From the NCBI GenBank assembly GCA_963635055.1, contig CAVHEM010000009.1, forward strand, positions 9,757 to 73,756: 64,000 nucleotides of DNA. The letters run 5' to 3'. Of this stretch, positions 11,752-57,887 are shown piece by piece. Numbering within the stretch: the first letter of the stretch is position 1; the number at the start of each line of letters is the position of its first letter. The stretch comes from Bacteroidaceae bacterium. Its GTDB lineage: Bacteria; Cyanobacteriota; Vampirovibrionia; Gastranaerophilales; Gastranaerophilaceae. Below the pieces are notes generated by a model, which worked only from the letters and a program-made list of their open reading frames with translations, did not search any database and was not told where the DNA came from. A program made the position numbers and the translations under genes.

Positions 11752-11798
11752 AATTTTTATATTCGTGTTAAAATTCAATAGTAATAATGGAGTTCATA

Positions 11799-12215
11799 AT
11801 GAGTAATAGCCAATTGGATTTGATGAATTTGAAAAACTGTATAAGCGCTTTGAAAGAATGCATTGAAGCCTATAAGTCAAATACAGATAAGAAAATACAA
11901 GGTTTTATAGAAGATTCTTGCGTTAAAAGGTTTGAATTTACTGTTGAAACATCTTGGAAAACAATGAAACGATTTTTAAAAGTCGTTTATGGTAAAGATG
12001 ATAAAGAATTGACCATGAATAATATTTTTCGTTTAATGGAAGGATATGGATTTATCAAATCTTGGGAAGCATGGCGTGGTTATTATGACCAACGAAATGA
12101 TACAAGCCATGAATATAATCAAAAGAAGGCTATTGGTATTTTGAATTCTATGAATGATTTATTAGAAGATGCAAATTACTTATACACAGAATTGAATAAG
12201 GAATTAAACAAGTAA
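11799..12215 (+). CDS. HEPN-domain protein, HI0074 / HepT-like nucleotidyltransferase substrate-binding family (toxin-type component)
   Basis: VKRFEFTVETSWKTMKRFL and RNDTSHEY (Rx4H HEPN motif). Start set at ATG 11799, which has a GGAG SD. Confidence 0.8.
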   Translation: MSNSQLDLMNLKNCISALKECIEAYKSNTDKKIQGFIEDSCVKRFEFTVETSWKTMKRFLKVVYGKDDKELTMNNIFRLMEGYGFIKSWEAWRGYYDQRNDTSHEYNQKKAIGILNSMNDLLEDANYLYTELNKELNK

Positions 12216-12512
12216 ATGCCACTTGGAATAACAGAAAAAGAGCGTAGTATAATTGTAGGTATTTTGAAAGAATATTTCAACAAATATTCTTTTTATTACT
12301 ATGGTTCAAGAATAAAAGGAAATTTTAACAAGACTTCTGATTTGGACATTATGATAAAGGGCAACTCAGAGATGCCTTTGTCTGAATTAGCAGCATTAAA
12401 AAACAAATTTGATAAAAGTTTTTTGCCGTATATTGTGAATTTTACAGATTATTGTAGTATTGATAAAAATTTCTATAATTTAATTAAAAATGATTTAATT
12501 CTTGTCAAATAA
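12216..12512 (+). CDS. Minimal nucleotidyltransferase (MNT / MntA-like, HI0073 family; antitoxin-type component)
   Basis: YYYGSRIKGNFNKTSDLDIMI (GS...DxD NTase motif). The ATG directly follows the HEPN gene stop (TAAATG). Confidence 0.8.
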   Translation: MPLGITEKERSIIVGILKEYFNKYSFYYYGSRIKGNFNKTSDLDIMIKGNSEMPLSELAALKNKFDKSFLPYIVNFTDYCSIDKNFYNLIKNDLILVK

Positions 12513-12579: not shown

Positions 12580-12609
12580 TTGACAAATAAGGGTAAGTAG
12601 GTGTATTAT
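12580..12609 (+). promoter_or_regulatory. Candidate sigma-70-like promoter for giant gene 1 (implies a ~190-nt leader)
   Basis: TTGACA (12580-12585), 18-nt spacer, TATTAT (12604-12609). Confidence 0.35.
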
Positions 12610-12804: not shown

Positions 12805-15800
12805 ATGAGAAGAAGTAGAAAAGCACAAAGAAGAATTGTTGCATCAATACTTACGGGTGTTTTCCTAATGCAACAGACAATGACATTATCTGTCTTTGCG
12901 AGCACTATTACTTCAGTCGGTTCAGGTGTATCTCAAGATGGTAATACATTTACTATCGATCCGATGAAAACTAACGGAAATATCGGTTTTCAAAGATATT
13001 CTGACTTTACGTTGGATAAAGGTGATACTGCGAACTTAAACTTCGAAGGTGTTGAGACATTTGTTAACTTGTTGGATAAAGATAAGGGTCAATTCACTAT
13101 CAATGGTACTTTGAACTCTATCAGAAATAACAATTTCTATGAAGGTAAAGCAATTTTCATTTCACCAAACGGAATGGTTGTAGGTTCATCAGGTGTTCTT
13201 AACGTTGGTTCTTTGGGTGTTTATACTCACAGTGCCGATCAATATGATACAATTATGCAACAATCTGATATCAGCCATTGGACAGATAGAGATTTAGGAT
13301 TGACAAGCAACGGTACTATTACTATTGATGGTAAAGTATTCTCATCTGGTGATATCGCATTGAGAGCAGGTCAAATTAATCTTGGTCAAACAGGTGCTTT
13401 GATTGGTGGTTTGAATACCACAGTCGGTCAAAGTGTTAAAGATAATCCTGCAAACGCTGCTTTATTCTCAAGATTAGTTAATTTTAATGACGCTGCAAAT
13501 GATAAAAATTCAAGCGGTAAAGGTATTATCACAATCAACAACTATGTAGAAAGTGCTTTAGAAAAATCTACAGACGGTTTGAATTTACAAGGTACTGTTG
13601 CAAACTATGCTACAGTGACTCAACAAGATAGTTCTTATGTAAACGGTACTGTTGATTTAGCAAATATTCAAATTTACAATGGACATGGTGATGCTGTAAT
13701 TGGTGGTAAGATCACATCAAACGGTGGCAGCTTAAAGATTACTAACCGTGCTCAATTAAAAGATGGCAAAGGTAATTTGACAATCGCTGATGGTGCTAAT
13801 ATCAATTATCGTAGCGGCTCAATGTCTATCCACAACGGTCCTGTAACTTCAGGTTCTACAGGTTGGGCATCTGATAACGGTAACTATACATCAATGACAA
13901 TCAACGGCAACTTGTCAGGTAACGGTGATATGACCATTACTCAACTTGGTGCAGGTGGTATGACATTTGGTAAGAACAGTACAGTTACTAACAACGGTAC
14001 TTTAACTATTCAAAACGGTAACAAACCTGAAAGCGATGCTGCTAAAGAATTGAATGCCGTATCTGCTTCAATGGAAATCAACGGTAAGATTTCTAACACT
14101 GGTAAATCAACCATTACAAACTACGGTAAAGCCTTGAACGTTAACGCTACAGGTAATGTATCAAACGAAACTTCAACATTATCTATGTATAACTTCGGTG
14201 AAAATGGTTTTAATGTTGCAAACGGTGGTTCTATCAACGGTACTGATACAACAATTTATATGTATAACTATGGTGCTGACGGTATGAACACTCATGGCAA
14301 TGTAACTGCAAAAGGTACAGGCGACATTAACATGATAAACTTCGCATCAGGTACAAACGGTATCAATATTTACGAAGATAGTAAAATTACAAGTAATAAC
14401 AATATCAGTATTACCAACAAAGCAACAGGTCGTGACAATAAATCTTTAAGAAACGAAGTTGGCGGTGTTAACGTTAGAGGTTTAATTGATGCTACTGAAA
14501 TCGTTAATATTGATAGTGATTCAGGTAACGTTATATTAGGTTATACAACTAACGACAATTTTGTTAAAGGTAAAAATATTAACATCACAACAAATGATGC
14601 AAGTATTCTTAACTATGGTGTTGAAAAAACATTGTTGAATGCAACAGGTAACTTGTCAATGAAAGCAACTGATGGTACTATCGGTTTGACAACTCAAGAT
14701 AATGCATGTACAGGTTCAGGTTGTACCGGTGTTGGTCGTAAAGCAAATGGCAGCCGTGATTTCACAAAATCAATCAACGCAAATATTGGCGGTAACGTTT
14801 ATGCAAAAACAACAAATGCTGATAACACTGAGCAAGCAGCAAAACCAGAAGGATTAGTTATCAACTATGCTTCTATCGGTAACGATATGAACATTGATGT
14901 AGTTGATGCTGACGGTCGTGTTATCTTGACAGTTGATGATGATTACGGAACTGCTAACAACGGTAAAAAATACAGCATGAACAATGCTAATACAGGTTTG
15001 AACGGTGCTACAAACATCAAAGGTTGGGGCATTTCTTTAATCGCTGATAAAAATATTGGTACAAGCGACAACAAAGTAACCTTTATTCAAACTAAAGATG
15101 GTAATGATGGTTACAAAATGGACGTTTTGGCTAACAACGATATCAATATTAAAGAAAATAGTTACAATGACAGTGCTTACAAGGCTAAAAACGGCGAAAC
15201 CAAAAGTAACGATGTTTGCACAATGATTTCAAGAGAAGGAAGTATTGATGCTGAATTCGGCGGGAATACTTACATTGAAGACATTACTGCAGAAAAATCA
15301 ATCAATGTTGTTACTCGTGGTAAGATATTGGAAATTGAAAACTTGGGCGATATTCAAAACAAAGACATCTTAACAAACGGTGACTACTTCGGTAAATACA
15401 CAAACGGTGAAGCTGATGGCGGTTACTTGTCAGATGATAGAAAAACTCAATCTTTACCTAATGAAGTTACTTTGAAAGCATTAGATATTAACAAATCAAT
15501 CAGATCTGACGGTACGAATGTTGATGGTTATTATGCTTATGCAGATTCAACAGTTAGAGTTAAAAACGCTTTGTTAGACCACGGTAATATGGATATCACG
15601 GCTGACCAAATTTATGCTAACGGTATTCACGTTGATTACGGCAAAACTGGTCCGAAAAAAGAAATCGATAATTCAACAAAAAAAGTTGAAGGTGCTAAAG
15701 AATATCCTACAGGACACGCAGTAAGACCTAAAGATGTTACAGACATCGACCATGACGAACACGAAAGAAACTACTATTACCACACCGGCAAAGGTGACGG

Positions 15801-17130
15801 TTTCTCTCAAGAAGGTGATGGTGATGGTTACTACGGACCTGATCATTACCCTGATAACGGCGGTAATTCAAATGTCGATAACGATGACGGTGTAAACAGT
15901 GACACTCCTATCGCTATGGAAGAAGAAAAACCGAATGAACCTGATTTTGGTGATACAGATATCGATACAGATATTGATATTGATACCGACATCGATATAG
16001 ATAACGATATCGATACAGATACTGATATTGATACAGATATCGACACAGACTTAGATATTGATACTGACTTAGATATCGATACAGATACTGATGACGATGT
16101 TCCAGATGAACCAAAACCAGATCCGGAACCTGATCCTGATAAAGAACCTGATTTTGGTGACACAGATACAGATACTGATATTGATACTGATACCGACATC
16201 GACATAGACAACGATATCGATACAGATACTGATATTGATACAGATATCGACACAGACTTAGATATTGATACTGACTTAGATATCGATACAGATACTGATG
16301 ACGATGTTCCAGATGAACCAAAACCAGATCCGGAACCTGATCCTGATAAAGAACCTGATTTTGGTGACACAGATACAGATACTGATATTGATACTGATAC
16401 CGACATCGACATAGACAACGATATCGATACAGATACTGATATTGATACAGATATCGACACAGACTTAGATATTGATACTGACTTAGATATCGATACAGAT
16501 ACTGATGACGATGTTCCAGATGAACCAAAACCAGATCCAGAGCCAGATCCAGAACCAGATTTTGGTGACACAGATACAGATACCGATATTGATACTGACA
16601 CAGATATCGACGTGGACAACGATATAGACACAGATACTGATATTGATACTGATATAGACACAGACTTAGATATTGATACTGATATTGATATCGATACAGA
16701 TACTGACGATGATGTTCCGGATAGACCGGTTATTATTCCGAAAGTTGACCCAAGTATCATGTACATTCAAAGAAAAATCGATATGGCTGACTTGTCTGCA
16801 ATTGATAAACGTCAATATATGAGATTCAATATTTCAGACTCTACTCAACCGGTACTTCTTGAAACTTCTAACTCAGGTATTAACAGTATCCTTGATATTT
16901 CAAGAGGTGGTATCGCAGTCGGTCAAGACAACACATTACAAGTTGGTGATGTTGTTCCGGTACACTTAACTTACGGTGATTTGGATATCGATGCTGATGT
17001 TAAGATTGTCGCAACATCAGATAGCAAAGCCGGAGCACAATTCGTAAACTTGGATCCTGCAACTGCAAACAAACTTCTATACTTGAATATGTTGCTGGAA
17101 GATGCACAATATAGCATAACTCTTAAATAG
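12805..17130 (+). CDS. Giant (about 1441 aa) exported beta-helix-like protein: signal peptide + TPS/hemagglutination-type N-terminal domain + Asp-X repeat modules + C-terminal PilZ domain
   Basis: Signal peptide MRRSRKAQRRIVASILTGVFLMQQTMTLSVFAS. The TPS-like block is FQRYSDFTLDKGDTANLNF...INGTLNS...AIFISPNGMVVGSSGVLNVGSLGV. A long G/N/T-rich region with repetitive motifs follows, then 4 x 69-aa Asp-X modules. The C-terminus carries RQYMR (RxxxR) and DISRGG (DxSxxG). Start set at ATG 12805 by alignment with the paralog; the track ORF starts at TTG 12760. Confidence 0.8.
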   Translation: MRRSRKAQRRIVASILTGVFLMQQTMTLSVFASTITSVGSGVSQDGNTFTIDPMKTNGNIGFQRYSDFTLDKGDTANLNFEGVETFVNLLDKDKGQFTINGTLNSIRNNNFYEGKAIFISPNGMVVGSSGVLNVGSLGVYTHSADQYDTIMQQSDISHWTDRDLGLTSNGTITIDGKVFSSGDIALRAGQINLGQTGALIGGLNTTVGQSVKDNPANAALFSRLVNFNDAANDKNSSGKGIITINNYVESALEKSTDGLNLQGTVANYATVTQQDSSYVNGTVDLANIQIYNGHGDAVIGGKITSNGGSLKITNRAQLKDGKGNLTIADGANINYRSGSMSIHNGPVTSGSTGWASDNGNYTSMTINGNLSGNGDMTITQLGAGGMTFGKNSTVTNNGTLTIQNGNKPESDAAKELNAVSASMEINGKISNTGKSTITNYGKALNVNATGNVSNETSTLSMYNFGENGFNVANGGSINGTDTTIYMYNYGADGMNTHGNVTAKGTGDINMINFASGTNGINIYEDSKITSNNNISITNKATGRDNKSLRNEVGGVNVRGLIDATEIVNIDSDSGNVILGYTTNDNFVKGKNINITTNDASILNYGVEKTLLNATGNLSMKATDGTIGLTTQDNACTGSGCTGVGRKANGSRDFTKSINANIGGNVYAKTTNADNTEQAAKPEGLVINYASIGNDMNIDVVDADGRVILTVDDDYGTANNGKKYSMNNANTGLNGATNIKGWGISLIADKNIGTSDNKVTFIQTKDGNDGYKMDVLANNDINIKENSYNDSAYKAKNGETKSNDVCTMISREGSIDAEFGGNTYIEDITAEKSINVVTRGKILEIENLGDIQNKDILTNGDYFGKYTNGEADGGYLSDDRKTQSLPNEVTLKALDINKSIRSDGTNVDGYYAYADSTVRVKNALLDHGNMDITADQIYANGIHVDYGKTGPKKEIDNSTKKVEGAKEYPTGHAVRPKDVTDIDHDEHERNYYYHTGKGDGFSQEGDGDGYYGPDHYPDNGGNSNVDNDDGVNSDTPIAMEEEKPNEPDFGDTDIDTDIDIDTDIDIDNDIDTDTDIDTDIDTDLDIDTDLDIDTDTDDDVPDEPKPDPEPDPDKEPDFGDTDTDTDIDTDTDIDIDNDIDTDTDIDTDIDTDLDIDTDLDIDTDTDDDVPDEPKPDPEPDPDKEPDFGDTDTDTDIDTDTDIDIDNDIDTDTDIDTDIDTDLDIDTDLDIDTDTDDDVPDEPKPDPEPDPEPDFGDTDTDTDIDTDTDIDVDNDIDTDTDIDTDIDTDLDIDTDIDIDTDTDDDVPDRPVIIPKVDPSIMYIQRKIDMADLSAIDKRQYMRFNISDSTQPVLLETSNSGINSILDISRGGIAVGQDNTLQVGDVVPVHLTYGDLDIDADVKIVATSDSKAGAQFVNLDPATANKLLYLNMLLEDAQYSITLK
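15937..16730 (+). repeat. In-frame tandem repeat, about 4 copies of 207 nt (last copy 201 nt), encoding alternating Asp-X modules and a PDEPKPDPEPDP linker
   Basis: GAACC(T/A)GATTTTGGTGA recurs at 15937, 16144, 16351 and 16552. Copies 1-3 are identical by eye over more than 100 nt. Confidence 0.9.
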
Positions 17131-17153: not shown

Positions 17154-17185
17154 AAAAGACCTGCTTTAAAAGGCAGGTCTTTTTA
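17154..17185. terminator. Bidirectional rho-independent terminator between giant gene 1 and typA
   Basis: AAAAGACCTGC / GCAGGTCTTTTT inverted repeat with A- and T-tracts on both sides. Confidence 0.7.
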
Positions 17186-19117: not shown

Positions 19118-19462
19118 TCATTTTTTAAGTTCATCTAATAATCTTTGAACTTTTTTGTAAAGCCCACCCTTGCCATGCTTATCTAAAATTGAATTAGCAA
19201 GTTCCAATTCTTCTACTGCAAGTCGCTTGTTTTCAGTCTTAATAATTTGTGCAATTTCATATCTTATTGCAGCCAACTTTAATTCATACCCTTCAACAGG
19301 TTTCATTGCACGTTTGATTGTGTGAAATCTGCCTTGAACTTTAGTATAATTTTCGCAAATTTCTTTAAGAGCTCTTTTTTCGGTTTGTAATGTTTTCAAA
19401 TGCTTATCACTATTGGGTTGGGTTACTTTGTATATTTCTTTTAAATCGTTTGCACGAGCCAT
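19118..19462 (-). CDS. Hypothetical protein (114 aa, predicted helical); same frame as the upstream ORF
   Basis: ORF track, no recognisable motif. The 87 nt upstream are stop-free in this frame up to the TAA of ORF 19550-19807. Confidence 0.45.
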   Translation of the reverse strand: MARANDLKEIYKVTQPNSDKHLKTLQTEKRALKEICENYTKVQGRFHTIKRAMKPVEGYELKLAAIRYEIAQIIKTENKRLAVEELELANSILDKHGKGGLYKKVQRLLDELKK

Positions 19463-19549
19463 AATGTGAATAGGATCATTAAATCTTTTTGCAATAGCAA
19501 GCGCATTTGTTGCAAATTTTTCGAGAGCTTCAGTATTTTTCTGGTTTAA

Positions 19550-19807
19550 TTATTTTATTAATAGGCTATAAATTGCACCGGCTAGGCTTCCTTCACCCAA
19601 ATTTACCAATTTTTCTGCTAGTCTGGCACTGTTACGATTAAAGTTATTCAAATTATTAGTTGCTATATAAGTATCACTGATATCATGAAGTGTTGCAGAA
19701 AACTGTGATGGGTCTATATTTTTTCGTTGTTTTGCAGAACTCGTAACTTGTTTTTCTAATTTTGAAAACGCATTAACGGGATTGATATTTCTACTTATAA
19801 TCTTCAT
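19550..19807 (-). CDS. Hypothetical protein (85 aa); may be the N-terminal part of a longer interrupted ORF
   Basis: ORF track. Its TAA stop (19552-19550) is in frame with ORF 19118-19462. Confidence 0.45.
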   Translation of the reverse strand: MKIISRNINPVNAFSKLEKQVTSSAKQRKNIDPSQFSATLHDISDTYIATNNLNNFNRNSARLAEKLVNLGEGSLAGAIYSLLIK

Positions 19808-19851
19808 GAAAACTCCTTTTTAGGTTATAAAACCTGTAAAAAGAAATTTTG

Positions 19852-26944: not shown

Positions 26945-27409
26945 ATGCCATTCAGGTACAGATTACAAAAAGTTTTGGACTTTAGAATAAACCAAAAAGA
27001 AGAACAAAGAACCAGAGTTCAAAAGGCACAACAAGCGGTTAATCAGGCTGAGAATGACATAAAAAAAAATAATCAAGATATTCTTGATACAAAACAAGGA
27101 ATGCGGTCGGCTGATCCAATGATGTACGATACTTACGACAAGTTTTTGGAACATCTTTGGCAGAAGGCTGAGGAACTCGAAGCAAGACGACAAGAGTTGC
27201 AAAAAAAACTCGACGAGGAAGTTCAAAAACTCGTAAAATGTGAACAAGCAGTCAAAGTTCTTGAAAAGCACAAAGAAAAAAATAAAGAACTATACTTAGC
27301 AGAAGAAAAAGCGGCAGAATTAAAGCAATTTTCAGAGTTGGGTGTCACAAGGTTCTTTAAGAAAATTCAAGAGCAAGCGGCAGAAGAAGAATTGAATAAC
27401 AATAAGTAG
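26945..27409 (+). CDS. fliJ: Flagellar export chaperone-like protein FliJ
   Basis: N-terminus MPFRYRLQKVLDFRINQKEEQ, a 154-aa charged coiled coil. Lies immediately upstream of a FliK-like gene. Confidence 0.7.
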   Translation: MPFRYRLQKVLDFRINQKEEQRTRVQKAQQAVNQAENDIKKNNQDILDTKQGMRSADPMMYDTYDKFLEHLWQKAEELEARRQELQKKLDEEVQKLVKCEQAVKVLEKHKEKNKELYLAEEKAAELKQFSELGVTRFFKKIQEQAAEEELNNNK

Positions 27410-27423
27410 AAGGTAATAATATT

Positions 27424-28695
27424 ATGAGCGTAAATTCAACAGTATCATCAGTAAGCAGTTCATCTGCAACATCTCAAGTTTCAAAGTCTTCAAATACTGA
27501 AAGTTCAAAAAAGACTTCTGATTCTTCTTTCAAAAATGAAATGGATAAAGTTTCAACAACAGAAAAAACTGAAAAAGATACAAAAACAGAATCTAAAGAG
27601 GTAAAAGAAACCAAAGAAACCTCAAAAACTCAAAAATCAGAAGAAACAGCAAAAGCTGAAAATACAAAAGACGCAAAAGTTGATGATAAAAATACTGTTT
27701 CTGACAAAAAAGAAACCAATATTGTTGATAATAAAGAAAACTTGTTAAAAGATATTGAAAAAAATAACATTGAACTTATTAAAAATCAACAAATTTTAGA
27801 TAAGAAAAACTTGTTAGGTACAGATAATAACCTTCAACAAGAACAACAGGCTCAGCAGATTCAATTTGCTCAAGCAAACTTAAACAAAAATATTGATAAT
27901 CCGATTTCTAAAAAAAATGATGTAAAAACTGTTGTAAAATCAGATAAAAAACGTGAAAATGAGTTGGATTCAATTAGTACTGAACTTGATAATGATTTAC
28001 AAGTTCCGACAGATACTTCACAACTTCAAGCAACGGATAGCAATTACAATACTGATTCGTTAGTTGCTGATGAAAATAATATGTTGAATGGTAATGTCAT
28101 ATTCAATAATGAATTATCTAGTTTTGATATTAACAATAATGAATTATCAAATGATATTCAACAAATGATAAATACCTCAACAATTGCTCACAATGTCGCA
28201 AGTGTTAAGGCTACTCAAGCAGTTGGAACTATGAAGTTAAATAACTCAACTAACAGTATTTCAATGACACAATCTGATGCTGAATTCTTTGTTAATTTGA
28301 CTCAAAATAATGATGTTTCAATGCAAAATATTACGGCTCAGGCAACAGAAATGACCCAACAAGGTGCTGATGTTAAAGAAGTTCAACAAAATGTCAAGGT
28401 ATCACAAGCGTTACTTGATGCCTTGAGTGAATCTCGTGAAAAAAATCAACCTGTAAGAATTGATTTTGATAAAGATGTTTCTGTTGTTTTAAGAGTCGGT
28501 AAAGATGGCGCCTTGGCTGCAAACTTTATCCCTGGCGATAAAGCAGTTGAGCAATATTTGAGAAATAATATTGAAACTTTGAAAAATACATTTAATGAAA
28601 ACGATTTGCCGTATTCAGATTTGAGTTATTCAAACAGAGGCGGCAAACAACAACGTGAAAACCAACGTAATAGACAACAACAGCAGCAGCAATAA
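27424..28695 (+). CDS. fliK: Flagellar hook-length control protein FliK-like
   Basis: S/T/K/E/N/Q-rich disordered N-terminal part and a conserved-looking C-terminal domain (VRIDFDKDVSVVLRVGKDGALAANFIP...). Its position between fliJ and a hook/rod protein supports the call. Confidence 0.55.
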   Translation: MSVNSTVSSVSSSSATSQVSKSSNTESSKKTSDSSFKNEMDKVSTTEKTEKDTKTESKEVKETKETSKTQKSEETAKAENTKDAKVDDKNTVSDKKETNIVDNKENLLKDIEKNNIELIKNQQILDKKNLLGTDNNLQQEQQAQQIQFAQANLNKNIDNPISKKNDVKTVVKSDKKRENELDSISTELDNDLQVPTDTSQLQATDSNYNTDSLVADENNMLNGNVIFNNELSSFDINNNELSNDIQQMINTSTIAHNVASVKATQAVGTMKLNNSTNSISMTQSDAEFFVNLTQNNDVSMQNITAQATEMTQQGADVKEVQQNVKVSQALLDALSESREKNQPVRIDFDKDVSVVLRVGKDGALAANFIPGDKAVEQYLRNNIETLKNTFNENDLPYSDLSYSNRGGKQQRENQRNRQQQQQQ

Positions 28696-28718
28696 TAAAA
28701 GGAGAGTTTAACAAAAAA

Positions 28719-29558
28719 ATGAATGATGCTTTTATCACAGCAATAAATACCCAATATGCGACGATAAACTGGATGGACGTTATCGCCGATAACATGACAA
28801 ACGTTTATACTCCAGGGTTCAAAGAAAAACAGGTAAGCTTCAAAACATTTTTAGGTGGAGCGATAAATGATGACTATAGCAAGAAAATGAGTCAAGGTAA
28901 ATCTACTCCAGGGACTTCTAATGATAACGTATTTTTGGAAGGAAAAGGCTTTTTCTTGACTAAAACTCCTGACGGCAAGAGTGTTTACACAAGACTCGGC
29001 GAATTTACTTTTGATGGTGAAGGGGTTTATAAAGCATCTAACGGGAATACTGTTCAAGGTTATATCCTTAATGATAAAGGAGAAATAATGCAAGGGACTA
29101 AACCTATAAGTGCTGATTTGTACCAAGAAACCGCATTGAAAGGCGGAGCATTAGATATTCCGACAACTAATATCAAAATGTGGATTGACCCGAACAACGG
29201 TAAATATTTAGGTAAGTATGACGAATACGAAATTCAAAAAGACGGAACAATTGTTGGTAAGGCTGAAAACGGAAAAAAAGTTGTTCCATTATATAGGATT
29301 ACAACAAGAAATTTCCATAATGCAGCAGGTTTGTATGAATACAAAGACGGAATGTTTTTAGAAACTGAAGAATCAGGTAAACCTGTTTTAGGTTGTGGTG
29401 AAATTCGTTCCGGTTTATTAGAACTTTCTAATGCTGATTTTAAGGGAAATATTTCATACTACAAAATGGCAAAATTACAGATGGAAGTGGTTAATAAACT
29501 TATTTCATCAAACAAAGAATTACTACAACAAGCAATGCAAATGGTTAGTAGTTCTTAA
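28719..29558 (+). CDS. Flagellar hook/basal-body rod family protein (FlgE/FlgF/FlgG family; short, 279 aa)
   Basis: N-terminal rod motif DVIADNMTNVYTPGFKE and a C-terminal LELSNADF...KMAKLQMEVVNKLISSNKELLQQA motif. Confidence 0.7.
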   Translation: MNDAFITAINTQYATINWMDVIADNMTNVYTPGFKEKQVSFKTFLGGAINDDYSKKMSQGKSTPGTSNDNVFLEGKGFFLTKTPDGKSVYTRLGEFTFDGEGVYKASNGNTVQGYILNDKGEIMQGTKPISADLYQETALKGGALDIPTTNIKMWIDPNNGKYLGKYDEYEIQKDGTIVGKAENGKKVVPLYRITTRNFHNAAGLYEYKDGMFLETEESGKPVLGCGEIRSGLLELSNADFKGNISYYKMAKLQMEVVNKLISSNKELLQQAMQMVSSS

Positions 29559-44840: not shown

Positions 44841-46250
44841 TTATTTTTCAAGTTCAATCATTTCGTCATCGTCTTGAATATTTTTACCAATAGATTTTTC
44901 AAGTTCGGCACGAGCAGAATTGTATTCATATAATGCCGTATAATAGGTTAATTGCGCTTGTTCGTAAGTATTTTCAGCATCTTTCAATTCTGTTGGAGAT
45001 GCCTCACCAACACGGTAACGACCATAAGATAACTCGTAGTTTTCTCGAGATTGTTTAACGTTTAAAATTGCTACAGGAAGTTGATTTCGCTTTTCTTCAA
45101 GTTTCAAATACGCATTTTGAATTTCCAAATATATACTGTTTTGGGTATTTCGAGCATTTGCAAGTTCTCTATCGTACAAATATTTTGCTTCTTTAATTTC
45201 ATTTCTGATAAGCATTGCGTTAATTGTCGGAAAAGTCAAATATCCGCCAACATTAAAACCGTAATTGGAATTCCAAGACTTACCACCTCGTTGATATTGA
45301 CCTTCAAAACTCAAGGTTGGAAAGAACGATTTTTTTGTCAATTTGATAGTTTGATTAACTCCTTCCACTTTAATTTCTGCAAGTTTCAATTCCGGACGAG
45401 AATCACGAGCCGTATCAATTGCCTGCTCAAATGACATATTAACCGGTTTATACTGTAATTTATCTACAATGTCATATCTTTCAATATAAGGTACACCCAT
45501 TACATTATTCAACTTTGCAATAGCCAAATTAACCGCATTTTCAGCCTGAATAAGTTTTAATTTTGCATTACTCAAATTTGTTTCTGCGATTGTGACATCA
45601 ACTTTCGGATTTTCTCCAGTCAAATAAAACGCTTTGGCCTGATTGTAAAACAATTGGTACTTATCAACGGTATCTTGTGCTACACGACGATTTTCATAAG
45701 CATACAAAACATTATAGTAAGCATCTTTAGTTTGGTAAATTACATCATTTACAACTGCTTCAAAAGTTTTTTTGTAACCCTCATAATCTAATTTTCTGAT
45801 TGTTGCCTGATTTTGAGTTACCCCAAAGTCATAGAGCATTTCTTGCAGTGAAATCTGCCCAAGCAAATAGTAATTAAATTCCAAACTTTGCCCTAATGCA
45901 TCAGACAATTGCAATTGTCTTAAACGAGTATAACCGGTTTGCCACGATATTGTTGGGAAAAAGTTTGACCAAACTTGTTTAATTCTGGCATCTGATGCCA
46001 AAATATCTTGAAATGCAGCGTTAATTTGCGGATTATTACCAAGTGCAAGTTTCAAACAGTTATCAAGAGTCATATCAATATTTTTTTCAATAGAGCCAGA
46101 TATGACATAGTTTGGATTAACTTTTACCTCAGGCAAAACTTGTTCACCTTGCGGATATTCGTCCGTATTGATATCATTGCCCAAACTTTTAGCCAAGGTT
46201 ACGGGCGAAATCATTATTATTATAAAAATTATGAATAATTTTTTAAGCAT
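44841..46250 (-). CDS. TolC-family outer membrane efflux protein
   Basis: Signal peptide and two tandem OEP repeats with characteristic helical heptads. Overlaps the RND pump gene stop. Confidence 0.85.
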   Translation of the reverse strand: MLKKLFIIFIIIMISPVTLAKSLGNDINTDEYPQGEQVLPEVKVNPNYVISGSIEKNIDMTLDNCLKLALGNNPQINAAFQDILASDARIKQVWSNFFPTISWQTGYTRLRQLQLSDALGQSLEFNYYLLGQISLQEMLYDFGVTQNQATIRKLDYEGYKKTFEAVVNDVIYQTKDAYYNVLYAYENRRVAQDTVDKYQLFYNQAKAFYLTGENPKVDVTIAETNLSNAKLKLIQAENAVNLAIAKLNNVMGVPYIERYDIVDKLQYKPVNMSFEQAIDTARDSRPELKLAEIKVEGVNQTIKLTKKSFFPTLSFEGQYQRGGKSWNSNYGFNVGGYLTFPTINAMLIRNEIKEAKYLYDRELANARNTQNSIYLEIQNAYLKLEEKRNQLPVAILNVKQSRENYELSYGRYRVGEASPTELKDAENTYEQAQLTYYTALYEYNSARAELEKSIGKNIQDDDEMIELEK

Positions 46251-49200
46251 CTTTTTTACTTTCTTTGATTTTTGAAACTTTATTTGACATGTAAATTTTA
46301 AATTCCTCTACCATAACGTAAAATGCCGGAACTAGGAATGTACCAATAAATGCAACCGCCATCATACCGCCAAATACTGTCATACCAACAGAGTGACGAG
46401 ATGCAGCCCCTGCACCTTGCGCAAATACAAGAGGTAACAAACCTAAAATAAACGCAATATTTGTCATCATTACCGCTCTGAAACGTAATTTTGCAGCCTG
46501 CATTGCCGCTTCTCGTATCGGCATACCGCTTTCATGAGCATCTTTAGCAAATTCAACAATAAGAATTGCCTGTTTTGTACTCAAACCGATTAACATAACC
46601 AAACCAATTTGAGAATACAAGTCCATTGAATACCCTGCAACATATTGGAAAACCAGCGCTCCGACAAGAGATACAGGAGTAACCAAAAGTACACTTATTG
46701 GCAAGAACCAACTTTCATACAATCCGACCAAGAACAAGAAAATAAATACCAAAGACATTACCAAAATCGGTAAAATTTGTCCGCTTGATTGTTTTTCTTG
46801 TAAAGAAGAACCTGACCATGAGTAGCCCATATTATCCGGCAAAACTTCATCAGAAAGTTTTTCCATCATCTCCATTGCCTTACCGGAACTTACACCAGAA
46901 CGTGCACTTCCGTTAATTGTAATTGCTGGGTACATGTTAAATCTTGTTCTTGTATATGGTCCGACAATGTTAGAAATTTTTACAACAGACATCAACGGTA
47001 CCATTTTACCAAAGTTATTTTTTACATAAATTTTATTCAAGTCAGAGATTTTTTCTCTATATGGTGCATCTGCTTGAACATAAACACGGTAAACACGACC
47101 GTATTTGTTAAAGTCATTAACATAAGTTTTGGCAAAATATGCCGCAATTGCATTATAAATTTCAGTAACTTCAACATTCTGCGCCATTGCTTTATCCACA
47201 TCAACATCAATCAACAATTGAGGCAAATTTGCTGTGTAAGATGAATAAATCATAGTAAAATCAGGATTTTGTCTTGCTTTATTCATCAAATTTTGTGCTT
47301 GTTGATACATTTCACCGGCACTTCTATCACCTTTATCAAGTAATTGATATTCAAAACCGCCAAACATACCTAAACCTGTAATAGCAGGTGGGGAGAAGGT
47401 CGCTATCGTAGCCCCAGGGAAATGCGCAAATTGAGCGTTAATGTTTCCGGTTATACCATCTATAGATTCTTCTTTTGACTTTCTTTGTGACCACGGCTTT
47501 AAGTGAGATACGATAAATGCCGTATTTTCACCGTCAAAACCAATCAATGAAATAGTATCAGCAACCCCAGGGAGTTTTTTCAATTTATTTTCAACGTCCT
47601 TTGCAACACTATCTGTTCTTGACGCTGATGAACCTTCCGGCAACTGAATTTGAGTAAACAATGCACCTCTGTCTTCTGCCGGCAAAAATCCTTTTGGAAT
47701 TAAATAGAACATAAAACCTGATAATACTGTAATTCCAAGAATTACTCCAAGTGTCAATTTCCACGAGTTAATAAAGGTTTTTGTTCCTTCAATATATTTA
47801 TCACGAACCCCGTTAAACCATTCATCAAAAACTTGAATAAACTTAAAGTCCGCTTTTTGACTATCTTTTTTCAATATCATAGAACAAAGTGCAGGTGCTA
47901 AAGTCAATGCAACCATTGTTGACAAACCGATTGATGAGGCAATACATAGTGCGAATTGTCTGAACATACGACCTGTAATCCCGCCCATAAACGATACTGG
48001 AACAAATACTGCCATCAATACTAACGATGTTGCAACAACGGCACCAAATACCTCTTTCATTGTGACTTCTGTCGCTTCTTTCGGGTCAAGTCCGTCTTGA
48101 ATGTGTCTTTGAGTATTTTCCAATACAACAATCGCATCATCTACAACCAGCCCAACAGCAAGTACCAAGCCGAATAAAATCAACAAGTTTATCGAAAATC
48201 CAAATAAGTTCATGAAAATAAATACACCGATTAAAGAAACCGGAATTGCAGCAAAAGGAATAAATGCCGCTCTTGCAGTACCTAAAAACATGTAAGTTAC
48301 AATTGATACCAATAATACGGCTAGTGCAACTGCCGTTACAACTTCGTGAATAGATTCTCGTACAAATTCCGTTTCATCGTGTTGAACTTTGTATGTAATA
48401 TCTTTTGGGAAAGTTTTGCTCAATTCAGCCAATTTCTTTTGAATTTTATTTGACAATTGAATAGCATTTGCTTCGGGCATTTGACTGACTGTAACAATTG
48501 CAGAATTTTTACCGCTTATACGTGAAAAATAGGAGTAACTTTCTGCCCCTAAATCAACTTTTGCAACATCTTTCAGCTTAATTTGCGCACCGTTTGGCAA
48601 TGATTTTATAATTATATCTTCAAACTCTTCGGCTGATTTCAAACGTCCTTTGGTACGCATAGTGAGTTTGATTAACTGTTTGTTTTTCATAGGTTCAACA
48701 CCCAAATCACCGGCAGGTGTTTGAATATTTTGAGCCTGAATTGCATTAGTTACATCAGTTGTGGAAAGCCCATAATTTGCCATTTTGTCAGCATCAAGCC
48801 ATATACGCATTGCATAAGATGATGAACCGAATACACTAACTGTACCGACGCCTTTAATACGTGCGATTTCATCTTTAATAAAGATATCTGCATAATTTGC
48901 AATAAATAAGTTATCATAGGAATTATGCGGAGAATTTACAGAAATCATCAACAACCCCGGACCACCGGTAGTTTTACGTACGGACAAACCGTATCGCCGC
49001 ACTTCTTCCGGCAAACGAGGGGTTACAAGTTGTAACTGGTTCTGAACGTTTACTACTGCCATATCCGGATCCGTTCCGATATCAAAATATAAAGTCAATT
49101 TATATGAACCGTTTTGAGAGGTTGACGACATATATATCATATTATCAACACCGTTCAATTGAGCCTCAACCGGTGCCGCAATAGTAGATTCAATAACGTC

Positions 49201-49377: not shown

Positions 49378-49399
49378 TATTGTTACCCTAATTTATATA

Positions 49400-50575: not shown

Positions 50576-50660
50576 TATATATCTCCCTATCAAAATTTTA
50601 GAGGTAAATCCTAATCAACGTGTATATTAAGTTTAATATAAATGTACTTTTGGTGTCAAA

Positions 50661-53726: not shown

Positions 53727-56700
53727 CTAAAATACGTTTGAGAATTTATTCACATCATCTAATATCATATTCAAGAATAGAATTTGATTTGCAGTTGCAG
53801 AATCTAGGTTTACGAACTTAGCCCCTGCTCTGCTGCCGGTAGTTGAAACGATTTCAACATCAGCATTGATATCAAGGTTTCCGTAGCCGATGTGAACAGG
53901 CACTACATCACCAACTTTGATGTCTTTGCCGTGCTTGATTGAAATTCCACCTCTTGAAATATCTATCAACTGTTCAACACCGTGTCCTGTTTCAAGTGAA
54001 ATAGGGTTAATGTTATCAGAAACCGAATATCTCATATATTGACGTTTGTCAATTGCTGACAAGCCTTGAGAATCAATTTTTCTTTGAATATAAGTAACAC
54101 TACCATCTGCTCTACTGTTGTCATCGTCTGTATCGATATCATTGTCTGCATCTGTATCAACATCAGTATCAGTGTCTATATCTGTATCCCCTGGGTTAGG
54201 TTCCGGTTTATCGTCATCTGTGTCAGTATCCCCAGGATTTGGTTCTGGAATATCATCGTCATCATCTGAATCGGTATCTCCAGGGTTAGGTTCCGGCTTA
54301 TCATCGTCTGTGTCGGTATCACCCGGATTTGGCTCAGGAATATCATCGTCATCATCTGAATCGGTATCTCCAGGGTTCGGTTCCGGCTTATCATCGTCTG
54401 TGTCAGTATCACCAGGATTTGGCTCAGGAATATCATCGTCATCGTCTGAATCGGTATCCCCTGGGGTCGGTTCCGGCTTATCATCGTCTGTGTCAGTGTC
54501 ACCAGGGTTTGGTTCTGGGATATCATCATCAGTATCTGTATCAATATCAGAGTCCAAGTCGATATCTGTATCAGCATCTAAGTCATTATCCAAATCTGAG
54601 TCTGCATCAGTGTCTGTGTCCATATCGATATCATTGTCAGCGTCAATATCTGTGTCTGTATCAATATCCGTATCGGTATCAGTATCACCAAATGATGGTT
54701 CTTTGTCATCTGGTTTATCGTCATCAGTGTCGGTATCTGTATCCCCTGGGTTTGGATCAGGAATATCATCGTCTGTATCAATATCTGTGTCAGTATCAGA
54801 ATCCAAGTCAATATCCGTGTCAGAATCTAAGTCAGTATCAATATCTGAATCCAAATCAGTATCTGTATCTATATCGGTATCGTTATCTAAGTCGTTGTCA
54901 TTATCAACATCAATATCTGTATCTGTGTCAACGTCTGTATCAGTATCAGTGTCGCCGAAATTAGGTTCATCAGGCTTATGATCAGGAGTATCATCATCTG
55001 TGTCAGTATCTGTATCGATATCAACATCAGTATCTGAGTCTAAATCTGTATCAATGTCGTTATCAGCATCAGTATCAGTATCAATATCATTATCTACGTC
55101 GATATCTGTGTCTGTATCAATATCCGTATCAGTATCGGTGTCACCAAAAGTTGGCTGATTTTTATCCTTGTCCGGAATATCGTCATCTGTATCAGCGTCT
55201 AAATCATTATCAGCATCGATATCAGTATCCAAATCTGTATCAATATCTAAGTCTGTATCGATATCAGTATCTGTATCTATGTCGTTGTCAATATCTATAT
55301 CAATATCTGTGTCGATATCAGTATCAATATCGTTATCTGTATCCCCAAATGAAGGTTCAGGTTTATCTTCCATTTCTAACGGTGTTGCATCTACTATATC
55401 ATCATTATCATCAACATTAGATTCTTGACCATTAAATACACCGTCACCATCTCCTGGGTGATAGTAATAATTTCTTTCATGTTCGTCACGACCGATACCT
55501 TCAACATCATCTGGTCTAACGGCATGACCTGTAGGAATTTCGCTAGTACCAATCATTTTATTTGTTGAAGAATCCGGAGTTTTTGTATATCCGTCTTTAC
55601 CGAATTTTACAGCAATACCATTTGCATAGATATTATCTGCCGTAATATCAACGGTTCCATTATCAATAACCGCATTATCAACTCTTACTGTTGAATCAGC
55701 GTAAGCGTAATGACCATTATCAATATAAGTTCCGTTTGGACGAAGTGCTTTGTTAATATCCAATGATTTTAATACAACATTATTTGGTAACGCCTCATCT
55801 CTATGGTCAAAACCTGTATATCCGCCATCTTTTTGTCCGTAATCACGTGGTCCGAAGTAATCTTTCGGAGTAACTGAATTATCAACAATGTGACCTAAAT
55901 TTTTGATTGTTAAATTTGTACCTCTTGTAATAATTCTCATATTACCTTCTGAAGTAACATTGTTAATTATAGTGTTTCCGCCGAATTCAGCATCTAAATC
56001 GCCTTCACGAGCGATAATAGTACAAACTTTATTTACTAAATTTTTCTTATCATCTAATGCTTTAATAAAAATACTATCGTTAGCAAGTGCATCAATTGAA
56101 TAATTATTGCCATCTGTTTGGTTAAATGTCAATTTATTATCTTTGCTACCAATGTTGCCGTTAGATATCAAAGACATTCCCCAACCTTCAACATTTGCAA
56201 CAGTGTTATCAATTGCTGAATTTAGCATATCATAACGAGAACCGTTATTTGTATAACCAAAATCGTCATCAACAGTCAAAATAACTCTGCCATCTGCCTT
56301 GATTTTATCAATATTCATATCGTTACCGATAGAAGCGTAATTGATAACTAAATCTTTCTTTCTTGAAACCGGACTCTTAATTGTATCAGTTGTTGTTGCT
56401 GTAACAGTACCATCAACATTAGCATTGATTGATTTTGTAAAATCTCTGCTACCGTCAGATTTTGGACCGATACCTGTACAGCCTGAACCAACGCATGCAT
56501 TTTGTTGAACAGGTTCACCAATTGTGCCGTTTTCAACGTCCATTGTTAAATTTCCACCGGCATTCAATAATGTTTTTTCTACACCATAATTCAAAATATT
56601 TCCGTTGGTATTCGTAATATCAATATTTTTACCTGCAGAAACGTAATTATCATTAGAAGTTCTATCACCGATTACAATATTACTGTTTTTGTTTGCTATA

Positions 56701-57887
56701 GCGACATTTCTGTCAGCGTGCACAAGCCCTTTGATATTAAGACCTTTAGAACCGGTATTTGTAATATTTACATTATCAGTAGCATTAACACGTCCTGAAC
56801 TTGCAATATTTAAACCTTCATTACCACTGTTTGAAAGGTTTGTTTCGCCATCATTCAAAACATTACCAGAAATATTAAGTTCAGTTTCTTTAGAAATTGT
56901 GTAATCGTAAACATTTCCATCAACATTGTAACGAGTCCCGTTTTCAGCCGGAGCGTTAGTAATATTTATCTTACCGCCAGCGTTTTTAACAGTTCCTGAA
57001 ATATCTAAATCATTCCAGTAATTGTTTATTGTAGTGTTACCGTTTGAGTTTACAACATTACCGGCAATTTTGATACCTTCTGAACCGTTGTTGTTGATAT
57101 TTATATCACCATTTCCTAGGTTTCTCATTGTACCTTGAATATCAACACCGGCATTAGTATCTGTTTGTCTTGTTTCGATAGTAATATTACCGTTATTGCT
57201 GAAATACTTGACATTATTTGTATTAACTAAAGTGTCAAACAAATTTTGCGCTTGTGCTTTTGATAAATTATTTAATGCTGATTCATTTACACCCGAAATA
57301 ATTCCCGCATTTTTCGCTATAGTAACCTTGCCACCTTTTAACTCAACATCATTTGCCGCTAAAACTTTACCGTTGATGGTAATTGGTTGACCATTATTTG
57401 AATTTGCTAATCCTGAATAATCAGCAGTCGGGTTAGAACGATATTTTTCATAAGTTGATTGAGTCGGTGTATAAACGCTCAAAGAACCTACATTAAGTAC
57501 ACCTGAAGAACCAACAACCATACCTTTAGGAGATACAAAAACTGCTTTTCCATTATAAAAATTGCCATCTCTCATAGTATTAACTAAACCGTTGATATTG
57601 ATTTGGTTATCAACTAAGTTCAAAAAAGTATTAATATCATTATTACCATATTTGAAAATCAAATTAGCAACATCATCTTTATCAAGTACAAAATCTTTAT
57701 ATTTTCTGTAGCCGATATCTGTTTTCGGAATCATTGCTGTAGGGTTAATGTTGTAAACGCCGTTATTTCCGTTAATCCCGCTAATTTCACTTGCAATGAC
57801 AGATAGCAACATGCTTTGTTGTGTTAAAAATAACGATGTAAGCACTGCCGCTACAATTCTTTTAGGTCTTTTATTACGGGTATTCAT
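53727..57887 (-). CDS. Giant (about 1386 aa) paralog of 12805-17130: signal peptide + TPS/hemagglutination-type domain + beta-helix-like region + Asp-X repeat modules + C-terminal PilZ domain
   Basis: Signal peptide MNTRNKRPKRIVAAVLTSLFLTQQSMLLSVIAS. The TPS-like block is YRKYKDFVLDKDDVANLIF...INGLVNT...AVFVSPKGMVVGSSGVLNVGSLSV. Blocks shared with paralog 1 include NILNYGVEKTLLNA, GSGCTG, GSRDFTKSINAN, LVINYASIGNDMNID, ADGRVILTVDDD, PTGHAVRP and DEHERNYYYH. The C-terminus carries RQYMR and DISRGG. Start set at ATG 57887, which has an AAAGGA SD. Confidence 0.8.
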   Translation of the reverse strand: MNTRNKRPKRIVAAVLTSLFLTQQSMLLSVIASEISGINGNNGVYNINPTAMIPKTDIGYRKYKDFVLDKDDVANLIFKYGNNDINTFLNLVDNQININGLVNTMRDGNFYNGKAVFVSPKGMVVGSSGVLNVGSLSVYTPTQSTYEKYRSNPTADYSGLANSNNGQPITINGKVLAANDVELKGGKVTIAKNAGIISGVNESALNNLSKAQAQNLFDTLVNTNNVKYFSNNGNITIETRQTDTNAGVDIQGTMRNLGNGDININNNGSEGIKIAGNVVNSNGNTTINNYWNDLDISGTVKNAGGKINITNAPAENGTRYNVDGNVYDYTISKETELNISGNVLNDGETNLSNSGNEGLNIASSGRVNATDNVNITNTGSKGLNIKGLVHADRNVAIANKNSNIVIGDRTSNDNYVSAGKNIDITNTNGNILNYGVEKTLLNAGGNLTMDVENGTIGEPVQQNACVGSGCTGIGPKSDGSRDFTKSINANVDGTVTATTTDTIKSPVSRKKDLVINYASIGNDMNIDKIKADGRVILTVDDDFGYTNNGSRYDMLNSAIDNTVANVEGWGMSLISNGNIGSKDNKLTFNQTDGNNYSIDALANDSIFIKALDDKKNLVNKVCTIIAREGDLDAEFGGNTIINNVTSEGNMRIITRGTNLTIKNLGHIVDNSVTPKDYFGPRDYGQKDGGYTGFDHRDEALPNNVVLKSLDINKALRPNGTYIDNGHYAYADSTVRVDNAVIDNGTVDITADNIYANGIAVKFGKDGYTKTPDSSTNKMIGTSEIPTGHAVRPDDVEGIGRDEHERNYYYHPGDGDGVFNGQESNVDDNDDIVDATPLEMEDKPEPSFGDTDNDIDTDIDTDIDIDIDNDIDTDTDIDTDLDIDTDLDTDIDADNDLDADTDDDIPDKDKNQPTFGDTDTDTDIDTDTDIDVDNDIDTDTDADNDIDTDLDSDTDVDIDTDTDTDDDTPDHKPDEPNFGDTDTDTDVDTDTDIDVDNDNDLDNDTDIDTDTDLDSDIDTDLDSDTDIDLDSDTDTDIDTDDDIPDPNPGDTDTDTDDDKPDDKEPSFGDTDTDTDIDTDTDIDADNDIDMDTDTDADSDLDNDLDADTDIDLDSDIDTDTDDDIPEPNPGDTDTDDDKPEPTPGDTDSDDDDDIPEPNPGDTDTDDDKPEPNPGDTDSDDDDDIPEPNPGDTDTDDDKPEPNPGDTDSDDDDDIPEPNPGDTDTDDDKPEPNPGDTDIDTDTDVDTDADNDIDTDDDNSRADGSVTYIQRKIDSQGLSAIDKRQYMRYSVSDNINPISLETGHGVEQLIDISRGGISIKHGKDIKVGDVVPVHIGYGNLDINADVEIVSTTGSRAGAKFVNLDSATANQILFLNMILDDVNKFSNVF
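54120..55365 (-). repeat. Asp-X dipeptide-rich coding region of giant gene 2, with several diverged DFGDTD-type modules
   Basis: Translation shows long runs such as DTDTDIDTDTDIDVDNDIDTDTDADNDIDTDLDSDTD, interrupted by short P/E/K linkers and [SNT]FGDTD module starts. Confidence 0.85.
54188..54530 (-). repeat. Tandem 90-nt repeat (about 3.8 copies) encoding DIPEPNPGDTDTDDDKPEP(N/T)PGDTDSDDDD
   Basis: GGTTCCGG(T/C)TTATC(G/A)TC(A/G)TCTGTGTC recurs at about 54199, 54289, 54379 and 54469. Confidence 0.85.

Follow-up and report, generated by a model that had tools for sequence, protein, structure and literature searches.

C-terminal PilZ domains in predicted exported, TpsA-like proteins of gut Gastranaerophilales

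A stretch of 64,000 nucleotides of contig CAVHEM010000009.1 (assembly GCA_963635055.1, positions 9,757 to 73,756 of the forward strand), referred to in the following as the window, derives from an organism deposited as Bacteroidaceae bacterium and placed by GTDB in the Gastranaerophilaceae; it contains two genes, locus 1 (12805..17130) and locus 2, coding for long proteins of the same architecture. In each of them a signal peptide, an N-terminal domain resembling that of the TpsA exoproteins of two-partner secretion (TPS), a beta-helical passenger and an acidic, low-complexity tether are followed by a C-terminal PilZ domain, a receptor for cyclic di-GMP (c-di-GMP). It is well supported that this architecture is a hallmark of uncultured gut Gastranaerophilales (Melainabacteria), in which it defines an order-specific, multi-copy family of predicted Sec-exported TpsA-like proteins. 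The arrangement holds a paradox, since the ligand-binding residues of a c-di-GMP receptor are those most strongly conserved in a protein that every sequence feature predicts to be exported.

PilZ is treated as a cytoplasmic receptor, and c-di-GMP control of LapA, CdrA and ExlA always runs via separate relay proteins in the cases studied; a canonical PilZ domain under strong selection inside an exported TpsA-like protein, throughout an order, raises the question of where the domain meets its ligand. A preliminary description of locus 1, made from the sequence alone, stated that no description of an adhesin-like exoprotein carrying its own c-di-GMP receptor was known to its author. The literature searched contains no description of PilZ joined to a TpsA protein or hemagglutinin, nor of a Melainabacteria adhesin with PilZ; database entries, however, do exist, under unnamed or generic headings. 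What is new is the recognition of the architecture and of the topological puzzle that it poses, the sequences being already annotated generically and not characterised.

Anatomy and conservation of the adhesin-PilZ proteins

The C-terminal domain matches the PilZ profile PF07238 well above its gathering score of 22.5 bits (36.1 bits in locus 1, 36.5 in locus 2), positions 2-96 of the 102 in the profile being covered, and both signatures named in the preliminary description are in place: RQYMR (RxxxR, within KRQYMR) at residues 1336-1340 (nt 16810-16824) and DISRGG (DxSxxG) at residues 1364-1369 (nt 16894-16911). The AlphaFold2 (AF2) model of the domain comprises a beta-barrel core with a predicted local distance difference test score (pLDDT) of 76-81, a C-terminal helix and a disordered N-terminal arm. 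The top 25 Foldseek matches of this model are nearly all PilZ domains, namely c-di-GMP-bound Alg44, MapZ and YcgR, then PlzA, MrkH and BcsA, with E values of only about 1e-3; by sequence profile too the nearest solved structure is Alg44 (hmmsearch E 0.04), with both motifs aligned. PilZ is also the best conserved module, the mean pairwise identity among 28 full-length representatives being 0.55 against 0.44 for the TPS core. Relative to the orthologs L001 and L002 (related loci are denoted by L and a number), its ratio of nonsynonymous to synonymous substitution rates (dN/dS), 0.04-0.05, is the lowest of all regions of locus 1, a gene under purifying selection over its full length (0.04-0.25). 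The domain is apparently canonical and ligand-competent. Both in the long proteins and in small paralogs described below, a signal peptide precedes it and a further membrane segment is missing, an arrangement that does not predict a cytoplasmic location. A survey of PilZ architectures presents PilZ proteins as cytoplasmic receptors, and mentions no adhesin, haemagglutinin, signal-peptide or periplasmic context (10.1101/814665).

The N-terminus of locus 1, MRRSRKAQRR-IVASILTGVFLM-QQTMTLSVFA/S (the slash marks the predicted cleavage), has the basic n-region, the 12-residue hydrophobic h-region and the V-x-A site of a cleavable signal peptide, as had been read at first sight, and the same pattern is found in 100 of 106 N-termini of the family. 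It is the sole hydrophobic segment of the protein, whose total net charge is -164; a second membrane anchor that would keep the PilZ domain cytoplasmic was not found in the locus 1 protein. Two other export routes were considered and rejected: Tat export of a folded, ligand-loaded PilZ domain, because of the marked hydrophobicity of the h-region and because most family members have KR where a conserved twin arginine would be needed, and type I secretion, with its acidic repeats and C-terminal signal, because of the conserved N-terminal signal peptide.

The residues that follow had been attributed to the TPS domain of TpsA exoproteins, with a match to PF05860 expected. A TPS-type N-terminus is indeed indicated by the NCBIfam model NF012204 (adhes_FxxPxG, leukotoxin LktA family filamentous adhesin), which scores 131.5 bits in locus 1 and 138.7 in locus 2 with a cut-off of 60, and by the structure searches reported below; PF05860, however, matches neither window protein and only 2 of 16 family members (best E 4e-5), and TIGR01901, at 17.4 bits, is under its cut-off of 29.1. 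The segment that had been placed at the NPNG position is FISPNG, at residues 118-123 of locus 1 (nt 13156-13173). The family motif F-[IV]-S-P-[NK]-G, with G-x-SGVLNVGSL after it, is nearly invariant and occupies the position of the NPNG motif of TpsA proteins, described as crucial for their folding and secretion (PMC5422565), the window proteins having FISPNG or FVSPKG in its place. A Selenomonas plasmid gene annotated as belonging to the same LktA family directly follows a TpsB gene of the ShlB/FhaC/HecB family. The N-terminal domain can be regarded as a divergent FxxPxG/LktA variant, whose tie to true TPS domains is indirect but consistent. Since the classical TPS model failed and no TpsB was found (see below), the protein is called TpsA-like here, not a proven TPS substrate, and the term adhesin is used by analogy only. 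A 16-sequence N-terminal profile and a phmmer search with the passenger, both run against PDB sequences, returned only spurious matches to 'Cake' designer proteins.

The expected beta-helix of FHA/CdrA type is in agreement with the AF2 model of residues 34-1012, which is all-beta (pLDDT 77; predicted TM-score 0.78). Its best PDB matches in Foldseek are HxuA (E 8e-5) and EtpA, then the HxuA and HMW1 secretion domains, with the Ag43 autotransporter and lyase beta-helices ranking below these TpsA proteins; the TM-scores are low, 0.2-0.5, as expected for long rods.

Between the helix and PilZ the tether is always low-complexity, acidic or proline-rich, with a length from about 50 to about 450 aa. 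Model residues 941-979 have pLDDT below 50, and the motifs of this stretch, HAVRP..ERNYYY..GDGDG, are kept across homologs. The four 69-aa Asp-X modules already noticed in locus 1 were recovered by Tandem Repeats Finder (TRF) as a 207-nt unit repeated 3.8 times with 94% identity; Asp makes up 42% of the region, and 80% of the Asp residues have another Asp at i+2. In most homologs a P/D/T/E linker of about 50 aa replaces the modules, which, by this comparison, are a lineage-specific expansion of the tether and not a conserved functional domain. Matches of the Asp-rich region to MSCRAMM adhesins with SD repeats (ClfA/ClfB/SdrC/SdrD) were dismissed, since they reach 48-71 bits where the cut-offs are 999-2500, are compositional and are confined to that region. 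Antisense open reading frames (ORFs) lie wholly inside the Asp repeat of locus 1 (15846-16766 and 15914-16528, minus strand) and inside that of locus 2 (54118-54981 and 54329-54964, plus strand); the best explanation is that they arise incidentally from the GAT/ATC-rich sequence of the repeat and are not genes.

A search with the passenger matched 543 proteins, the few named ones being 'Candidatus Melainabacteria' or 'Clostridium sp. CAG:813, filamentous haemagglutinin family outer membrane protein'; motifs were counted in the best 120 of the 543 together with the two window proteins. All but three of these 122, the three being truncated, end in a PilZ domain with both motifs, and [KR]RxxxR and D/NxSxxG, invariant in the 119, are kept across 28 representatives of clusters at 50% identity. 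Among 1.84 billion cluster representatives, 455 clusters were retrieved at E <= 1e-3, and among the best 150 of them most of the representatives that are long and complete have this PilZ domain at the C-terminus. A scan of one genome per GTDB species gave 285 matching stretches, the best 80 of which (76 loci) were used for the analyses of loci; they are labelled Gastranaerophilales, Melainabacteria or generically ('uncultured bacterium'), with a few bins labelled otherwise, and according to the record titles they come from the gut of humans, ruminants, deer and chickens and from other gut sources. All non-truncated PilZ ORFs in the 76 loci are fused (919-2003 aa), nearly all with an N-terminal FxSPxG, and the adhesin-PilZ genes often occur as 2-3 tandem paralogs. 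An exact-sequence look-up of the window protein among public assemblies gave no record. The gene otherwise occurs under Melainabacteria-type or generic labels only, but the bins of the gene-carrying contigs L003/L052, L029, L046, L062, L064 and L069 bear the names Acutalibacteraceae, Muribaculaceae or Methanomethylophilaceae, probably through errors of binning or labelling in public metagenome-assembled genomes (MAGs).

The second locus had been taken to indicate a conserved design. Located 36.6 kb from locus 1, it has the same architecture and is syntenic with related loci having the same upstream Polysacc_synt and MiaB-like genes, and the fusion recurs in hundreds of related genes; the Asp-X repeats, on the other hand, are no part of that design. 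It could be suspected that the fusion is an artefact of assembly or annotation, by which an adhesin gene and a separate PilZ gene were joined over a misassembled repeat, as the repeat is hard to assemble and the adhesin gene is cut off by the contig end in about half of the related contigs. However, in two other MAGs the locus 1 orthologs (ORFs of 1425 and 1418 aa) are collinear with it and align end to end through the repeats, with 87-89% nucleotide identity; homologs that have the short linker and no repeats carry the same fusion; PilZ ends 119 of the 122 homologs; and purifying selection spans the junction between adhesin and PilZ. The artefact is effectively refuted, as the preliminary description had held: the architecture did not originate by assembly error, and the uncertainty is limited to the exact repeat number. 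The contig ends, seen in about half of the related contigs (L003, L004, L006-L008, L010, L013, L014, L016, L019 and others), fall some hundreds of bases before the start of PilZ. Short-read assemblies seem to break routinely at the repeat or linker, so that the copy numbers and repeat lengths seen in MAGs are probably too low.

Small exported PilZ proteins and genomic context

The same PilZ subfamily is found in a second type of protein. In a CAG:813-type locus two tandem adhesin genes are followed by a gene of 160-187 aa with a PilZ match, and a profile hidden Markov model (HMM) of the adhesin PilZ domain recovered small PilZ ORFs in at least 19 related loci, mostly directly 3' of the last adhesin gene. 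These proteins, of about 145-220 aa, consist of a classic signal peptide (e.g. MKNNPSQRLLIALLALLLIGNSYSLA/TE, the slash as above), a short low-complexity linker and a PilZ domain retaining [KR]RxxxR, [DN]xSRGG and the same C-terminal LLYLS helix as the long proteins, and gene calls with PF07238 exist for them in many samples. Because an export signal precedes PilZ in two different architectures, an extracytoplasmic destination would be a property of this PilZ subfamily, and not an accident of one fusion. The coordinates of these genes and of the features of the window are collected in Table 1.

Table 1. Features of the two adhesin-PilZ loci of the window, and small PilZ genes of related loci (coordinates preceded by L refer to the related locus)
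Feature	Position	Strand	Basis or remark
Promoter-like site, TTGACA-18-TATTAT (11/12)	12580..12609	+	Consensus match only; number of such sites in the region equals shuffled expectation
Locus 1, whole gene: TpsA-like exoprotein with C-terminal PilZ, 1441 aa (ATG at 12805, stop ends at 17130)	12805..17130	+	ORF, HMMs
Predicted Sec-type signal peptide, residues 1-33, cleavage after LSVFA	12805..12903	+	Read from sequence
Right-handed beta-helix passenger (predicted), residues 34 to about 974 (about 940 residues)	12904..15726	+	AF2, Foldseek
TPS-like secretion domain, FxxPxG variant, residues 50-195	12952..13389	+	NF012204
Conserved Cys loop C-x-GSG-C within the beta-helix	14707..14724	+	
Acidic, predicted disordered stretch with the conserved HAVRP..ERNYYY..GDGDG motifs	15727..15936	+	AF2, alignments
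Four 69-aa Asp-X modules, each closing with a PDPEP-type spacer	15937..16722	+	TRF
PilZ domain, residues 1335-1424	16807..17076	+	PF07238
Terminator-like hairpin, 11-bp stem, between the locus 1 gene and convergent bipA	17154..17183	-	Hairpin scan
Locus 2, paralog of the same architecture, 1386 aa (ATG at 57887)	53727..57887	-	HMMs, 48% identity to locus 1
Locus 2 PilZ	53781-54047	-	
Locus 2 Asp-rich region, larger than that of locus 1	54063-55418	-	
Locus 2 TPS-like domain	57309-57725	-	
Small signal-peptide and PilZ gene	L078:14399-14962	+	
Further loci with small PilZ genes	L004, L005, L008, L010-L012, L017, L020, L022, L029, L030, L033, L038		
Further loci with small PilZ genes	L058, L061, L063, L069, L075, L077, L079		

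A Shine-Dalgarno-like AAAGGA lies 8-10 nt 5' of the locus 1 start codon, and the gene looks monocistronic, having its own promoter-like site and a hairpin before the convergent bipA. The hairpin is on the minus strand and so is placed for bipA termination; its effect on the adhesin gene is assumed.

The neighbours of locus 1 are genes for a penicillin-binding protein, a Mur ligase, an amidohydrolase, a nucleotidyltransferase pair, the convergent bipA and a major facilitator superfamily transporter, while locus 2 is accompanied by a Polysacc_synt flippase-like gene, a MiaB-like radical-SAM gene and, downstream, ilvD. The remaining window ORFs of at least 150 aa are housekeeping, flagellar or resistance-nodulation-division (RND) efflux genes. 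None of the window ORFs of this size has a GGDEF, EAL or HD-GYP domain, and a regular-expression search of the related loci, covering the loci only, found no GGDEF; HD-GYP c-di-GMP phosphodiesterases are encoded by a gut Melainabacterium (10.1101/2021.11.05.467447). Neighbours that recur across the 76 loci comprise housekeeping genes, retained through synteny, and a low-complexity protein of 600-628 aa. The latter (e.g. L063:5951-7834, minus strand) is the most frequent conserved neighbour, present in 48 of the 76 loci and convergent to the adhesin array; rich in Ser, Thr, Lys, Ala and Gln, it was rejected as a partner, as it belongs to no Pfam family, has no obvious link to the adhesin and is absent from the window.

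Other observations concern single genes. A 240-aa ORF found in 8 loci and directly upstream of the adhesin gene in L005 (5223-5942, plus strand) shows a weak match, at E 6.5e-4 and under the cut-off, to the prepilin-type N-terminal methylation motif PF07963. At 11787-12512 (plus strand) of the window, immediately before the adhesin promoter, a gene for a PF08780 nucleotidyltransferase substrate-binding protein is followed by one for a Pol-beta-type nucleotidyltransferase, a pair resembling a toxin-antitoxin module of HEPN/MNT type. About 690 bp at 19134-19829, with two minus-strand ORFs (19118-19462, 114 aa; 19550-19807, 85 aa), are absent from the otherwise collinear L001 and may be a small inserted cassette. 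FliJ-like, FliK-like and FlgE/F/G-like genes at 26945-29558 (plus strand) make the organism appear flagellated, which is relevant as c-di-GMP commonly switches between motility and adhesion. At 44841-50593 (minus strand) there is an RND efflux operon, with an OEP outer-membrane factor, an AcrB-family pump and a membrane-fusion protein, and this operon confirms a diderm envelope.

Possible roles of the exported PilZ domain

From the anatomy, conservation and distribution described above a mechanism can be inferred, all the steps of which are conditional. In the reading held most likely, PilZ would be a ligand-controlled C-terminal stopper, setting retention at the cell surface versus release; the probability of this reading is put at about 0.45. 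The beta-helix would reach the cell surface with its N-terminal end leading, the polyanionic tether, unable to fold, would remain in the export channel, and the compact PilZ barrel, the last part to be made and moved, would stop the chain and keep the protein attached to the cell; binding of c-di-GMP would stabilise the stopper, so that high c-di-GMP would lead to retention and low c-di-GMP to release. The logic would be that of the CdrA hook with LapG and LapD and that of the FhaB prodomain, with the difference that the adhesin itself would contain it. The stopper may act at the cytoplasmic face of SecYEG or at the periplasmic face of an outer-membrane transporter; the two sites are about equally likely, the ligand being available at the former, whereas at the latter the topology would match known TPS biology. 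A stopper is favoured by the fact that the signal peptide is the sole hydrophobic segment, so that no second anchor could hold PilZ inside. C-terminal stoppers of TpsA proteins, and c-di-GMP control of release, are known for CdrA and ExlA, with the control being indirect (PMC8472254).

Several points weigh against a ligand-controlled stopper. Passage of the outer membrane by two-partner secretion is itself inferred: Pfam identified no TpsB/Omp85 gene among window ORFs of at least 98 aa; phmmer with the ShlB-type TpsB of Selenomonas gave nothing at E <= 10 in the window and in 1.12 Mb of 79 related loci (within 10 kb); and neither a TpsB nor a conserved candidate partner emerged from the clustered neighbours (ORFs of at least 120 aa in 76 loci, with Pfam run on the conserved clusters). 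Since there are TpsB transporters that several TpsA proteins share and whose genes lie elsewhere (PMC5422565), and Hmw1B-type TpsBs are common in Cyanobacteria (PMC4104836), a TpsB elsewhere in the genome is plausible. Ligand binding, export and surface location are predictions made from the sequence, and the PilZ model is moderately confident (mean pLDDT 62). With regard to the cytoplasmic version, a folded domain stalled at SecYEG is expected to jam the translocon. A periplasmic ligand-dependent stopper meets the difficulty that c-di-GMP is not known in the periplasm, only in the cytosol (PMC8472254). Moreover, the small PilZ proteins, without a passenger, have nothing to retain, which suggests an independent role for PilZ outside the cytoplasm.

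In its full form this suggestion sees in PilZ an extracytoplasmic module that has a separate function; the chain would be exported in its entirety, with no control of retention. The domain would work in the periplasm or at the tip of the fibre, docking or binding ligand with the small exported PilZ proteins, or recognising extracellular c-di-GMP or a guanine-nucleotide-like ligand of the envelope or matrix. The constant position of the subfamily behind a signal peptide, in two unrelated architectures, speaks for such a module, and the small proteins, called as genes in many samples and equipped with classic signal peptides, fit better with a self-standing role; furthermore, the FHA model puts the C-terminal end of mature TpsA at the distal, functional end. 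It is nonetheless somewhat unlikely, given that c-di-GMP is known only in the cytosol and yet its binding residues are the best conserved ones, that this window has no small PilZ gene, and that no extracytoplasmic PilZ was found in the literature searched. Action at an earlier moment can also be envisaged, with PilZ licensing export while still cytoplasmic: c-di-GMP and a partner (SecA, a chaperone or an inner-membrane protein) would permit or block export, and the domain would later be passive or clipped. The canonical c-di-GMP motifs are in keeping with this, as is the fact that many PilZ proteins act via c-di-GMP-dependent protein contacts, MapZ-CheR1 and YcgR being among the closest structures; PilZ, synthesised last, would also be the last part to leave the cytoplasm. 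However, SecA can engage long pre-proteins before their synthesis ends, leaving little time for PilZ action, no conserved candidate partner is encoded nearby in the window or the related loci, and the small exported PilZ proteins would be left unexplained; export licensing is considered improbable.

Delivery of PilZ into a neighbouring bacterium, where it would bind or sequester c-di-GMP as a cargo of contact-dependent inhibition (CDI) type, has very little probability. The overall order of the parts, with a small C-terminal domain placed after a TPS domain and a long beta-helix, does resemble CdiA, and the cytoplasm of the target cell would supply the ligand; but the C-terminus is the most conserved part and not the most variable, the reverse of what is seen in polymorphic toxins, no immunity-like gene lies downstream (the convergent bipA comes after locus 1 and ilvD after locus 2), Pfam finds no pretoxin or VENN-type domain, and the family does not extend beyond a single order of gut bacteria.

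A separate question is whether c-di-GMP acts here in a new mode, with a canonical PilZ domain working outside the cytoplasm, on periplasmic or extracellular c-di-GMP or a related ligand, or with c-di-GMP-bound PilZ gating Sec passage. This is held possible, with more doubt than confidence; the Sec-gating version would be the natural counterpart of the translocation block of DHFR by methotrexate. If the ligand were met in the cytoplasm, the result would be ligand-gated protein export, and if it were met outside, extracytoplasmic c-di-GMP signalling; either novel version, if true, would be a new mode of second-messenger action, in which adhesion is controlled in cis. Whatever their mechanism, the adhesin-PilZ genes are the most obvious candidates for colonisation factors in the Gastranaerophilales, common uncultured members of the human and animal gut.

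Comparison with known systems

CdrA of Pseudomonas aeruginosa, secreted with CdrB, is a Sec-exported beta-helical TPS adhesin, which a C-terminal stopper retains at the surface in dependence on cytosolic c-di-GMP (PMC8472254). In that system c-di-GMP is received by LapD, an inner-membrane protein distinct from the adhesin, and LapG removes the stopper, a disulfide hook, whereas in the window proteins the PilZ receptor is inside the exoprotein, no lapD, lapG or tpsB is found nearby, and PilZ would take the part of the stopper. In FhaB of Bordetella, a TPS domain and a long beta-helix are combined with a proline-rich region and an extreme C-terminus that is conserved, stays inside the envelope and governs maturation and release. 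A review of TPS mentions the FhaB prodomain and the maturation steps (PMC5422565). Unlike the C-terminus of the window proteins, this prodomain is not a PilZ domain and binds no known nucleotide; moreover, fhaB adjoins fhaC, and its product has NPNG-type motifs in contrast to FxSPxG.

The LktA-family adhesins of Fusobacterium and Selenomonas (NF012204) share the N-terminal FxxPxG domain, at 131-139 bits, and the likeness rests on that domain; the Selenomonas member directly follows a TpsB gene of the ShlB/FhaC family, whereas the window genes do not. ExlA of P. aeruginosa, the partner of ExlB, is a TpsA protein held in the outer membrane at high c-di-GMP and released at low c-di-GMP (PMC8472254); it is, however, a pore-forming toxin, and the same paper describes the route of c-di-GMP as indirect and describes no c-di-GMP receptor domain in ExlA. 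For PilZ, the closest relative both in structure and in sequence is Alg44 (PDB 4rt0, 4xrn; Foldseek E 1e-3, TM 0.45-0.63), with RxxxR and DxSxxG aligned, but in Alg44 the domain is N-terminal and fused to a secretion domain of the HlyD family (10.1101/814665), while in the window proteins it is C-terminal, behind a cleavable-looking signal peptide. By analogy, the protein would work most like CdrA or FhaB, with an N-terminus of the NF012204 family and a C-terminus corresponding to Pfam PilZ.

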